Assembly (NCBI GenBank): GCA_963733045.1
Contig: CAVTBZ010000003.1
Span: 31,223-95,222, forward strand
DNA length: 64,000 bases
Direction: 5' to 3'
From: an uncultured Methanoregulaceae archaeon
Lineage (GTDB): Archaea; Halobacteriota; Methanomicrobia; Methanomicrobiales; Methanospirillaceae
In this document: piece after piece, positions 3,067-52,557 of the stretch
Layout: each line of letters opens with the position of its first letter
Position numbering within the stretch: the stretch's first letter is position 1
Made by a program: the position numbers and the translations under genes
The notes under the pieces: model-generated
Databases searched by the model: none
What the model saw: the letters and a program-made list of their open reading frames with translations, nothing else
Told to the model about the DNA's origin: nothing

Positions 3067-3274
3067 GGCTTTGTAGAAATGTTTTTTAAAAACTTAAACG
3101 CTCAATAGGGGTTTTTCCCCCCGCCGCCTGGCTCCCCCAAATGCGATAACTCCTGAGAATGGTATACAGCACTATCGCGCAGCGCAGGGGCGGTCAGGGG
3201 GGACAGGCACGGTCCCCTCCTTCATATTCTGTGCTTTAATTTTATACTTTGATAAAAATGAATTCTACAGAGCA
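3067..3274 (+). mobile_element. MITE-like repeat family A, copy 1
   Basis: Ends ggctttgtagaa...ttctacagagc; reverse-complement homologue at 22961-23166. Confidence 0.75.
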
Positions 3275-6504: not shown

Positions 6505-6716
6505 TTTTTTAATAATAATACACAACGGACTGTGTGTTTTTGCCAGCGACCAGGGAGCCCGATCCAAATGATATGTATACTTTTTTTTATGATAGCCTCC
6601 CTGATGGGAGGACGGGCTCCAGACCGGGACCCATGAACATCGCCCAGGTGATCCACTTGTAGCGAAGCGTCACTCCTGTCATTTTTTACGATTTTTCAAA
6701 AGTGGACTGTGTGTAA
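6505..6716 (+). repeat. Short diverged copy of structured repeat family B
   Basis: taatacac left end, gatagcctccctgatgggaggacgggc and ccaggtg...agcgaagcg shared with the 33.9 kb and 50.3 kb copies. Confidence 0.5.
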
Positions 6717-6944
6717 AAAAAAAAGATTTTTTATAACCTCCCTGATACTATCATTTGACTCCGTAGTCATAGAACGCATCTCAAGTCTGTGAACGGGAAG
6801 GTTGGCTTTTAAAAATATCCGTCAACTTTGGGAAGTGTTTACTCTATTCATGTTCATTTACGATCAGGAACGTAGAGACAGACTGCGCCTCACATGCCAG
6901 AACCTGTCATACCTTTTAATATCTTAACATGCTATTTTTCCTGT

Positions 6945-22960: not shown

Positions 22961-23166
22961 GGCTCTGTAAAATTCCTTTTATTCTGGCACAAAATAAAAA
23001 GGACACATGCTTTGAAGGAGGGGACCGTGCCTGTCACCTCGGGACCGCCCCTGCGCAATGTGATAGTCCAGTTATTACCTTCTCGGGGGTTATCGCATTT
23101 GGGGGAGCCAGGTGGCGGGGGTGAAACCTGAACGTTCGAGTATTTTTAAAACATTACTACAGAGCC
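22961..23166 (-). mobile_element. MITE-like repeat family A, copy 2
   Basis: Ends ggctctgtaaaa...ctacagagcc; shares cctggctcccccaaatgcgataac and gacaggcacggtcccctccttca with 3067-3274. Confidence 0.78.
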
Positions 23167-33611: not shown

Positions 33612-34058
33612 TATTTCTTAAATAATACTCTCTTAAGTGTAATTTTTTGTAAAATTTATCTAATCTGATTTTTGAAAATCGCCCATTTTTTCCGACGAGA
33701 ATGGATGTATTTGTAACATAGTTGTCAAGTCTAATGGGGGCGGTTCGCACCCCCAGGGACACACTCCTATTCATATTTCCTTGACAAATCCACTATTCGC
33801 CATCAGAACGCTTCATGAGCTTCCAGAGGGATTCCAGAAGAACTACGACGCCCCCCTTTACGCTCTCAATCCCCCGGGGGGAGGTAGCGTGACAGGATAG
33901 CCCCATCGAGAGGGGGACGGGCAGGTATCAGAGCATCTCAGCTGATCCAGGTGCCCGTCCGAAGCGAAGCGGAGGGGTACCATGACCCCTGTGAAGAGGG
34001 GAGAACGTGGTTGACAGGTATTTTTTATTTTTATACCCGTCGACCGTAGGTTATTTAA
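33612..34058 (+). repeat. Structured dispersed repeat family B, copy 1 (MITE or ncRNA)
   Basis: Colinear by-eye homology with the reverse complement of 50230-50668. Confidence 0.8.
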
Positions 34059-34063
34059 AAAAA

Positions 34064-34148
34064 TGCGAGGAGCCGGATTCGAACCGGCGAACCCCTGCGG
34101 GAATGGACCCTAAATCCATCGCCTTTGACCTGGCTCGGCGATCCTCGC
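34064..34148 (-). tRNA. tRNA-Leu(TAG)
   Basis: GCGAGGA acceptor stem, ATGGA-TTTAGGG-TCCAT anticodon arm, long variable arm, GGTTCGAATCC; CCA not encoded. Confidence 0.96.
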
Positions 34149-34519
34149 ATGATTGTTCTTATGTAATTTTATGGGTCTTCGTGTGAAGTTTCTCATCTGA
34201 CCCCAAATCCCGCTCCTTTGACGTGAGGGGGATACCCAGACCCTGCAAAGAGATCTGCTTTTTTTAACGAGTATTGATTTCCGATGATGTGCCGGTAGGA
34301 TCAAACCCGCGTGCTAATTACATAGGTGCGGGGAAAATAAGAGCATATCGACATTTTTATCGGAGGAATTCTGGTGCCTGCGTGATCGCAAAAAAAATCC
34401 TGGTAATCAGGGAATGCGTAACGGTTCATTAGTATAACCGGTGGATGACAGAATCATCAGGGACTGGTGGTGATAGGTGCCGGCACTATCGGTCCGGTTG
34501 ACCCTGTCAAAAATCCCGA

Positions 34520-43255: not shown

Positions 43256-44258
43256 GGCTCTGTTGAAACCCTGAAGTTTCCGTGGATGAGGTTAATAGCA
43301 ATAAGTTGCTCCTTGTAAAAGTTATGGCAAACCCAAACAAGGAGCACTACTTCTTCTCAAATTAGAAGTATATTTGTTTTCTGACATCGTGCCAGAATGC
43401 GGTTAGGCTGACCGGTGTCCCAGAATACTCCTCACGCTTTTGAGGAGGGATTTCACTCAGGATCAATTACTCACGTTACTTTTATTCAAAGAATATCTGG
43501 GAACTCATTATAGTGATTTGGTACAACTTGTTGAGATCATGGGCATTGTCCAGGAACAATTGCAACTCAATGAGATCCCCCATTATTCCACTCTCTGTAA
43601 ATTTTCAAAACGAGTTCCTGCAACCGTCTTAAACCAGTTATTCCGAAAAGCGTGTTCATTCATGACGGAATGGAAAAACTTCTCGTCGGTAGTTGCAATT
43701 GACTCATCCGGTTTTCACACCGGACTCTTCCAGGACCCTATTACTCTGTCAGAACCGGGAAGACCCGTCATGACTATCTCAAAACGACAATCTCCGTAGA
43801 TTCGGATCGTATCTACCTGCTAGCATTTCACGTCACAAATAATCGACGCCACGATTCACAAATAGCTCCGATCGTACTTCGTGCATCGAATCGGGTAAAA
43901 AAATCAAGGTGTTACGTGATGGATAAGGGCTACGATTCTGAACGTATTCACCAGTTGATCCATGAGGATTTGGAATCTCAATCCATGATTCCAATCAGAA
44001 ACTGGCTCGCCTCTTATGTTTCTGGAAAATATCGACAGATAATGGCTAACTCCTTCGACGAAAAACCTACGGCCGTAGAAATATGGCCGAAACGGTTTTT
44101 TCGATCTTGAAAAGACTCTTCGGGGAGACTATCTACTCTCGATCTTACCGTCTGCAAGTAAAAGAAATCAAGTTGAAATGTATCATTTTCTCCATCGATC
44201 GTTTCCTCAAAAATCAGCGGGTGTTCAATGTGCTATGACGCGTTATTTCAACAGAGCC
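43256..44258 (+). mobile_element. IS5/IS4-like insertion sequence (~1.0 kb)
   Basis: Perfect 13-bp terminal inverted repeats ggctctgttgaaa/tttcaacagagcc around a DDE transposase. Confidence 0.9.
43324..44238 (+). CDS. DDE transposase (IS5-like), frameshifted
   Basis: PHYSTLCKF, AIDSSG, RHD, DKGYDSE, AETVFS. Confidence 0.85.
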
Positions 44259-50208: not shown

Positions 50209-50229
50209 GGTATGTAGCTTTTTAAAAAC

Positions 50230-50668
50230 AAATACATATCCGACTCGAACATATCCGACTCGAAAAAAATAGAAAATTATCTTGCACCCGTTATCTCTTC
50301 CATCGGGGCCATGATACTCCTCCGCTACGCTTCGGACGGGCACCTGGATCAGCTGATATGCTCTGGTTCCTGCCCGTCCCCATCTCAATGGGCCTATCCT
50401 GCCACGCTCCCTCCCCCCGGGGGATGGTGAGCGTAAAGGGGGGTAATATTTCTTCTGGAATCCTCCTGGAAGGATTATAGATTCGTTCTGATGGTGCCAA
50501 ATGAATCTATCGGGAAAAGAGCCGATCCTGGCGGGCTCGAAGCACCCGCCTTTGATCTTGATATCTATGCACCGAATAGAATTTCTTATGTCGAAGAAAT
50601 TTAGGGATTTCCAAGAGTCAGATAAAATAAATTTTAAAATAATCACCGTTGACCGTGTATTATTAAAA
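50230..50668 (-). repeat. Structured dispersed repeat family B, copy 2
   Basis: Reverse complement matches 33612-34058, e.g. tcagctgatccaggtgcccgtccgaagcg is identical. Confidence 0.8.
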
Positions 50669-50679
50669 AAAATTGTGCT

Positions 50680-51988
50680 TTACGCAAACATAGCGCCTTC
50701 AACGTCGTCTGAACCGCGGTGGAAGTCTATACGGATTTTTGTTATTGCAGACTGGAAATCTTCCTGCGTAATTGCTGGGCGCTCCTTCCTGATTGCAAAC
50801 ATACCGGCTTCCATGCAGATTGCACGAAGATCTGCACCGTTTTTGCCTTCTGTTTGTTTTGCAACTTCTTCGAGGTTCACACTCTCATCAATTGTCAGCG
50901 CCCGGCAATGGACTTTTAAGATTGACAGGCGTCCCTTTTCATCCGGTAGCGGGATCTCGATAATCCGGTCAAAACGCCGGCCGGAGCAGTGCCCGGTCGA
51001 GGATGTCTATCCGGTTTGTCGCACCGATGATTTTCACATCGCCCCGGTTCTCAAACCCGTCCATGCCTGCAAGGAGCTGCATGAGCGTACGCTGGACTTC
51101 CCGGTCACCGGAGGTATTTGCCTCGGTCCGGGACGCGCCAACGGCATCTATTTCATCGATAAAGATAATGGTCGGGGCCTTTTTCTTGGCAAGATCGAAC
51201 AGCTCCCGGACCAGTCGCGCACCTTCCCCTATATATTTCTGGACAAGCTCGGATCCCACCACCCGCATGAAGTGGGCATTGGTCTCGTGGGCTACGGCTT
51301 TTGCAAGCAAGGTCTTTCCTGTGCCCGGAGGTCCGTGGAGGAGCACACCCTTTGGAGGATCCACACCGATCCGGAGGAAAAGGTCGGGACGCTTCAGCGG
51401 CAGTTCGACGGCTTCAACTATTTCATTTATCTGTTCTTCAAGACCGCCGATATCTGCATAGGTTTCCTGCGGGGAATCCACCAGTTCCATGCCATATATC
51501 TGCGCATCGAAGCTGGAGGGAATAATCTCAACTATCGCCAGCGACTGCTGGTTGAGGGTGCAGCGGACACCGGGCTTGAGTTCCTCGGCATTGATGGATG
51601 GAGAACTCCGTACCATAAATCGTGGGCCTGCACTGCTCCTGACTATCACCCTTGATGAGTCCACTACATCAGTGATTGTACCGATAATCAGCGGGGGGCT
51701 GCGGAGCTGCTCGCTCTCGCTCTTGAGTTTCCGTACCTCCCGTTCGTACCGGATCTTCTGGGTCTCAATATATCGTTTATCTGCCTCAACCTGTCGTAAC
51801 TGTTCGCGGAGTTCAAGGTTGCGGGATTCGAGGTTTCCGACACGCTCAAGCATCTGCACTTCGAGGTCGTGCTTGTCATTTTCTATCTGGCTCAGTTGTC
51901 CCCGAAGCTGCTCTGAAAGGGTACGATACAGCCTGTAGAGCTCTTCTGGCGTCTGAGGATCCGGTGACTGGTGGAGAATGTCTCCCAT
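50680..51988 (-). CDS. pan: Proteasome-activating nucleotidase, frameshifted
   Basis: Coiled coil, [30 protein letters not shown]-terminal HbYX-like MFA. Confidence 0.95.
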
Positions 51989-52043
51989 TTTGTTTCTCAA
52001 TTCAGCTATATAGGGAAACTGCATATAAAGTGTTTGTGAGAAT

Positions 52044-52557
52044 ATGCAGTGCGAAATGTGTGGAGAAACGATTCGCGGCGCCGCGAAATTAGTCCGTATA
52101 GAGGGTGCCGAATTACAGGTATGTAACAGATGTGAAAAATTCGGCACCGAAGTGCAGCAGGTGCGGCGCACCGATCTTGTGCGTCCGGGTGCTGCACCTC
52201 CCCGCCCGGGGAGATCTGCGACAGCAGCAGTGCCCGCCGAACGGAGAAAACGGGATCTCTTTGATTACATGGAAGGAGAGATTGTCGAGGATTATGCAGC
52301 CCGCATACGGAAAGCACGGATGGATAAAGGGCTTTCCTCAAAAGATCTCAGCTATGATGATTAAGGAACGTGAACACCTTATCAAAAAGATCGAGAACAG
52401 CGAGCTGATGCCAGAGGAAGACGTGCGGAAAAAACTTGAGAAGGTCCTTGAGATACGACTCATCGATGCACCGGAAACGGAAGCAGAGAAAAAGGTGCAG
52501 AGTAAACTTACTCCCACACTGGGCGATCTTACCATCATTAAAAAAGTAAAGAAATAA
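52044..52557 (+). CDS. Archaeal multiprotein bridging factor aMBF1, frameshifted
   Basis: CEMCG...CNRC zinc ribbon, HTH, TLGD; divergent from pan. Confidence 0.9.

Follow-up and report, generated by a model that had tools for sequence, protein, structure and literature searches.

Gene-less repeats of a Methanoregulaceae archaeon share their ends with a one-gene tyrosine-recombinase transposon and are probably moved by it

We analysed a 64,000-nucleotide stretch of DNA from an uncultured Methanoregulaceae archaeon (the window, G000:C3:31223-95222; the assembly of its genome, G000, is 74% complete) together with the genome of a sister species (G164, 86% complete). A preliminary description had marked a non-coding repeat with covarying hairpins at 33612..34058. 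The repeat is real, but the element proper is a copy of 433 bp at 33622-34054, and it has inverted ends that the description had missed. Its other basic observations hold. The interval aligns colinearly with a reverse-complemented copy at 50.2-50.7 kb (E 6e-61, 73.8% over 424 nt), and the GC-rich core is the best-conserved part of the repeat. The copies are located 3' of tRNA-Leu(TAG) and 3' of a gene that was there called pan, a name that we carry over as an assumption. The stems that it had named were found at the five positions given below, and there is no convincing open reading frame, the longest ATG-started frame having 51 codons. The features of the locus and of the related copies in the window are as follows.

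33622..34054, plus strand: family A non-autonomous element, focal copy; ends set by analogy with intact copies and autonomous elements; orthologous copy in G164
33622..33641, plus strand: left end motif, decayed in the focal copy; family consensus ATAAYACACWGTYRACTGTG
34033..34054, minus strand: right end motif, inverted, with a GTCGAC core
33616..33621, plus strand: 6 bp to the left of the focal element, putative crossover overlap placed by comparison with autonomous elements
34055..34060, plus strand: 6 bp to the right of the focal element, putative crossover overlap, within the T-tract 3' of tRNA-Leu
33736..33754, unstranded: GC hairpin 1
33860..33890, unstranded: hairpin H1, ACGCT..AGCGT around C/G tracts
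33893..33922, unstranded: CAGGATAG-hairpin-ACGGGC module, common to family B and to the long inverted arms flanking ArdC/DUF6876 cassettes
33915..33960, unstranded: long stem H3
33959..33972, unstranded: CCGAAGCGAAGCGG motif, the best-conserved stretch of the family A core
34063..34149, minus strand: tRNA-Leu(TAG), host neighbour, whose 3' T-tract is the insertion site
50229..50663, minus strand: another family A copy, downstream of the pan-like gene
6515..6717, plus strand: family B element, 203 bp, with the same ends as family A; the G164 site is empty

The pan-like gene itself (window 50679-52171) seems to be frameshifted near 50975, possibly through an assembly error, and the listed open reading frame stops at 50969.

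A profile search found 17 loci with family A interior homology in G000, plus end-only matches; G164 has 15 family A matches and G162 has 2. BLASTN with the focal copy gave no match in 40 sampled relatives. A pattern for the family A core matched 5 of 228 family genomes, and the matches in G047 and G088 are not elements. Among the viral contigs searched, neither the family A core nor the recombinase described below was found, and the end motif had one unrelated match. Both ends of family A carry an inverted motif of about 20 bp, ATAAYACACWGTYRACTG, within T-tract/A-tract DNA. In the focal copy, which is an old one, the 6 bp on the left differ from the 6 bp on the right.

The sequence near 6.6 kb, previously counted as a further copy, belongs to a separate 203-bp family (family B), which has only its ends and a hairpin module of about 27 bp in common with family A. 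The two families share the same inverted ends, with the consensus given above, each abutting a host T-tract. Family B has 9 copies at 91-100% identity in G000 and at least 40 matches in G164. When 39 family B loci of G164 were compared with G000, 13 were plain T/A tracts lacking the end motif, that is, empty sites; 3 shared the element, 6 held another insert, 14 lacked an orthologue pair and 3 were not parsed. The pan site holds a family A element in G000 and, in opposite orientation, a family B element in G164. The filled and empty sites and this difference indicate that the end motif arrives with the element and that sites are reused. Intergenic T-tract/A-tract DNA is the favoured target. 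The suggestion that the repeat is mobile and MITE-like was thus borne out by filled and empty sites, by inverted ends and by a matching autonomous element. Elements of 280-410 bp with family B ends and a family A middle were seen in three other congeners (L322, L316 and L324), which suggests a common ancestor of A and B. Another repeat family of about 270 bp, with different ends, lies just inside an end motif at G000 C8:46130-46400 and at 8 other places.

Next, we addressed the role of the hairpins. The preliminary description took the stems to covary and the structure to be selected as RNA, perhaps an undescribed non-coding RNA. In 24 core sequences from three genomes, 87.9% of the 703 cells of a 30-pair structure were paired. 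Changes on both sides affected 9 cells in 8 of the 30 pairs, nearly all of them in single sequences, against shuffle means of 2.8 cells and 2.6 pairs; none of 500 shuffles reached 9 cells, a control that is inflated by related sequences. The hairpins exist, as described, but they show more conservation than covariation, which is weak: pairing was broken in about 85 of the 703 cells, and the RNAalifold covariation term was +0.32, a penalty. As mismatches of the G-U type (28) and the A-C type (34) were similarly frequent, neither strand is favoured. The pan copy folded better than its shuffles (z -1.66 and -2.77), and the focal core did not (z -0.58 and -1.20). A search of Rfam gave no match at gathering score and five chance-level matches by E-value.

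Conservation was examined in 8 orthologous pairs between G000 and G164. The element was less conserved than both flanks in 5 of them, intermediate in 3 and never above both; the focal copy is 87.7% identical to its G164 orthologue, and its flanks, which are largely coding, are 94.0% and 91.2% identical. When 30 loci were read per site, G000 and G164 alone had an element downstream of tRNA-Leu or of pan. It was found at none of 28 other congener loci for the tRNA-Leu site and at none of 28 for the pan site; one locus per set is truncated, and as no more than 11 of the 28 tRNA matches outside G000 and G164 reach 99-100% identity, some may be other Leu genes. A functional structured RNA, selected or needed for mobility, would fit the high proportion of paired cells, the excess of two-sided changes and the folding of the pan copy. 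We nevertheless regard it as very unlikely: there is no strand bias, the element decays at least as fast as its flanks, covariation is penalised, Rfam gives no match, no element was found at the orthologous sites of the 28 other congener loci, and family B and solo end sites spread while lacking most or all of the core. The hairpins are real and compensated slightly above chance, and the evidence does not favour RNA. Since family B and solo sites spread with little or no core, the inner hairpins most likely act as signals at the DNA level or represent captured passenger DNA carried by successful lineages.

Family B junctions were then measured in 41 copies, after 6 had been dropped (3 orthologous duplicates and 3 with damaged ends). 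Junction lengths fit 4+6+4 bases, with a sum of 13-14 in 18 of 41, and copies with a longer left junction tend to have a shorter right one (rho -0.45, p 0.003). The two 6-bp flanks were identical in 6 of 41 copies, compared with 3.0 in shuffled data (p 0.07). An earlier 5-bp coupling model, under which identical flanks numbered 3 of 44 against 2.3 shuffled, was dropped for the 6-bp register read from autonomous copies. With regard to the one-sided 6-bp footprint of Tn554 and SE elements, the target spacer was kept on one side only at L128 and on both sides at L103. These junctions fit a recombination overlap that is often, not always, matched and is blurred by homopolymer slippage; taken alone, they would also accommodate a short duplication of the DDE type.

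Prokaryotic MITEs are mobilised by DDE transposases and have a fixed target duplication. Like them, and like passenger-carrying IS derivatives, the elements described here are short, gene-less, intergenic and multi-copy and have inverted ends. We weighed whether they are classical MITEs that some DDE transposase not yet found, for instance an IS701- or IS1634-like one, moves while making a short A/T-rich target duplication. The partial duplication signal at family B junctions speaks for such an origin, as does the end motif, which agrees with the IS701 end signature of PMC2266710 at 6 of its 7 positions. However, family B has no sharp duplication length, the best being 9 of 47 at 8 bp against 4.3 shuffled, whereas an IS5-type control was sharp at 8 bp only (16 of 39 against 0.5). 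The transposase check covered IS5, IS256 and 30 DDE_5 (IS701-type) loci: none of the latter carried A/B ends, and the IS5 and IS256 elements found have different ends of their own. With a tyrosine recombinase that does carry the A/B ends at hand, a DDE origin appears unlikely. An IS256 element adjoining one end site was rejected as a partner on account of its own ends, and the IS5 elements match another MITE family (D), which in G000 behaves as a DDE-type MITE. For the family D type, 39 paired-end elements were counted. In the window, family D copies of about 208 bp with GGCTCTG ends and 8-bp duplications lie at about 3067-3274 and 22961-23166, and an apparently frameshifted IS5-family element with GGCTCTG ends lies at 43256-44258 and has two near-identical copies elsewhere. 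One family D copy sits inside the right end of a family A element (L050, C5:2710). Elements of the IS200/IS605 or REP type (HUH Y1) were also discarded, as no PF01797 match was found in G000 (74% complete) and the ends are inverted.

The end motif was found at both ends of a tyrosine recombinase gene in G141 whose product (444 aa) has intact catalytic motifs. Relatives of this recombinase at E<=1e-30 are present in 66 of 228 family genomes, and a large collection gave 537 protein matches. An end profile trained on 133 other sites was scored at 46 recombinase loci. Five of these scored at both ends (17/24, 17/27, 17/21, 8/32 and 6/14 bits) and a sixth scored 15 bits at its only available end; the other 40 did not exceed 4.2 bits upstream and 7.5 downstream, where the background 95th percentiles are -0.4 and 5.4. 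The five lie in four congeners. In a quick tree of 45 rows, from which one duplicate had been removed, their recombinases group on a single branch (support 100). Four elements have clear borders and measure 1,753, 2,370, 2,592 and 1,127 bp; in the shortest, the gene is truncated. All four are flanked by identical 6-bp sequences (CTGATG, CTTGAG, TTTAAA and TTTAAA), and three are inserted in a TTTT-N6-AAAA target. Autonomous element L454 lies in a non-T/A target, and the left end of L455 is weak. A single recombinase gene is found between the ends, and it is the one gene that L454 holds; at least two of the five autonomous elements carry extra open reading frames, and four of the five have GC-rich hairpins 3' of the gene. 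A sister recombinase clade (L473, L475, L476, L477 and L480) has a different palindromic end after a T-tract upstream.

This recombinase does not reach the cut-off of the XerA, XerC/D or integron-integrase models (22 bits with the last, against a cut-off of 265). Mobilisation by the host XerA would be in keeping with the sole tyrosine-recombinase match in G164, the genome with the largest expansion, being a XerA-like gene. We consider it highly improbable, as a dedicated recombinase clade carries the A/B ends and XerA is nearly universal in archaea while the end motif is patchy; nor are the ends a plain 11-6-11 repeat of the dif type (PMC2958812). Five tyrosine recombinases of G000 were rejected as partners, with no such ends nearby (four were read and three scored).

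Because it has inverted ends, no coding capacity, many copies, filled and empty sites and an autonomous element with the same ends, we conclude that the repeat is a non-autonomous mobile element. Its ends match those of the one-gene tyrosine-recombinase transposon of related methanogens, whose enzyme probably moves it in trans. From these comparisons we infer the following course of events. The recombinase would bind both ends of the element and excise it or copy it in circular form, the two ends being joined across a 6-bp spacer. This circle would then recombine at host sites of the form TTTT-N6-AAAA. If matching spacers, most often TTTAAA, were preferred, the terminator-like nature of the targets would be accounted for, and unequal flanks would arise where spacer mismatches are tolerated. 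Each junction would stay a target, allowing site reuse and arrays. Several observations stand against the recombinase reading. The clade was not found in G000 or G164 at their 74% and 86% completeness, even though family B has at least 40 copies in G164. Identical 6-bp flanks are in modest excess in family B, so that the 6-bp rule is putative for the miniature elements. The target of L454 and the left end of L455, noted above, also fit less well. The interiors of families A and B showed no homology beyond the ends with the five autonomous elements, and thus do not derive from these sampled ones.

We also compared the elements with known systems. Tn916-family ends and their T/A-rich host flanks have the same geometry as the elements described here (PMC12229494). 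Tn916/Tn1549-type elements and low-specificity IMEs (Tn5520, Tn6218 and MTnPi) likewise have A/T-rich imperfect inverted ends, a short spacer between end and host, TTT/AAA host flanks and many sites per genome (PMC12229494 and PMC5704250). By contrast, our elements are archaeal and only 1.1-2.6 kb long; their flanks are identical in 4 complete autonomous copies, no excisionase, relaxase or conjugation genes were seen inside complete elements, and the autonomous form is far rarer than derivatives that lack genes or carry only cargo. Tn554, SE, GInt and RIT are tyrosine-recombinase transposons too, and in SE and Tn554 the inverted repeats are imperfect and the spacer is 6 bp long (PMC10214605). 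All four, however, encode 3-4 recombination proteins instead of one recombinase, and are listed, with ICE/IME excepted, for bacteria only. The Cryptons and Starships of eukaryotes resemble our elements, by description only, in having one tyrosine recombinase only, short direct repeats interpreted as target microhomology and, in Starships, cargo (PMC13465315); Cryptons, however, lack terminal inverted repeats, whereas direct repeats and inverted ends occur together here. Cumulatively, the elements work like Tn916, Tn554/SE and Cryptons but fail a defining feature of each, and so are members of none. No description of this element family was found in the literature searched, a scope that left ISfinder and most subscription papers outside.

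The end motif, with up to 2 mismatches, is present in 84 of 220 family genomes as against 4 of 180 other genomes of the order, and a reversed control gave 0. Many of its sites open a cassette with a small passenger gene, and such genes recur in different species at differing locations. A pyridoxamine-oxidase-like gene (PF01243) occupies a 614-bp segment bounded by the end motif and a T/A tract; the G134 and G145 versions of this segment are 86% identical and have different flanks. Small membrane-protein cassettes are common to L158 and L162, and to G000 C15:91809, G141 and G145. On metagenome contig L137, a cassette with a gene that we take to be HEPN-like occupies the site that holds a family A copy in G000. 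Cassette right ends are more degenerate. Some solo end sites are old and common to G164, and since many neighbours of solo sites are ordinary host genes, not every end site marks cargo. Arrays of directly oriented end sites with single open reading frames between them were seen at L182, L183, L187, L196 and L197, and at L187 and L137 a start codon lies about 12-20 bp from the junction.

Hairpin-dense, GC-rich arms of 290-570 bp form inverted pairs around small ArdC (ArdcN + MPTase) or DUF6876 cassettes in G000, at C4:24905-27915 (L034), C13:1167-3653 (L033) and C3:1-659, and at L314, L317, L318, L321 and L323. These arms contain the CAGGATAG-hairpin module that is also seen in families A and B. 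In our judgement they resemble leading-region signals of conjugative elements, and the reverse complement of the module presumably resembles a MOB_P nick site, which would hint at an oriT; a PF03432 relaxase over the cut-off was found in none of the 228 family genomes.

Integron cassettes are similar in being single small genes beside a palindromic site and in forming arrays of directly oriented sites. The present elements differ in their dispersed targets, their degenerate second end and the low integron-integrase score of their recombinase, and their edges lack attC R/L boxes as we understand the integron definition. We tentatively entertain the possibility that Methanoregulaceae run a dispersed, integron-like form of gene shuffling, in which one recombinase transposon would serve both miniatures and cassettes in trans. 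Single-gene cassettes for flavin-binding proteins, methyltransferases, HEPN-like and membrane proteins might insert at the T/A tracts of terminators, restore the target and accumulate in arrays, and the GC hairpins might act in single-stranded form as signals for copying or transferring the circles.

This analysis ties an anonymous family of repeats to the enzyme that likely moves it, and delineates in methanogens a family of one-gene tyrosine-recombinase transposons with miniature and cargo-carrying derivatives, elements that searches for IS transposases would miss. A compact recombinase with two 20-bp ends might serve as an integration tool for methanogens. If confirmed, these elements would represent a route for accessory-gene turnover in Methanoregulaceae.
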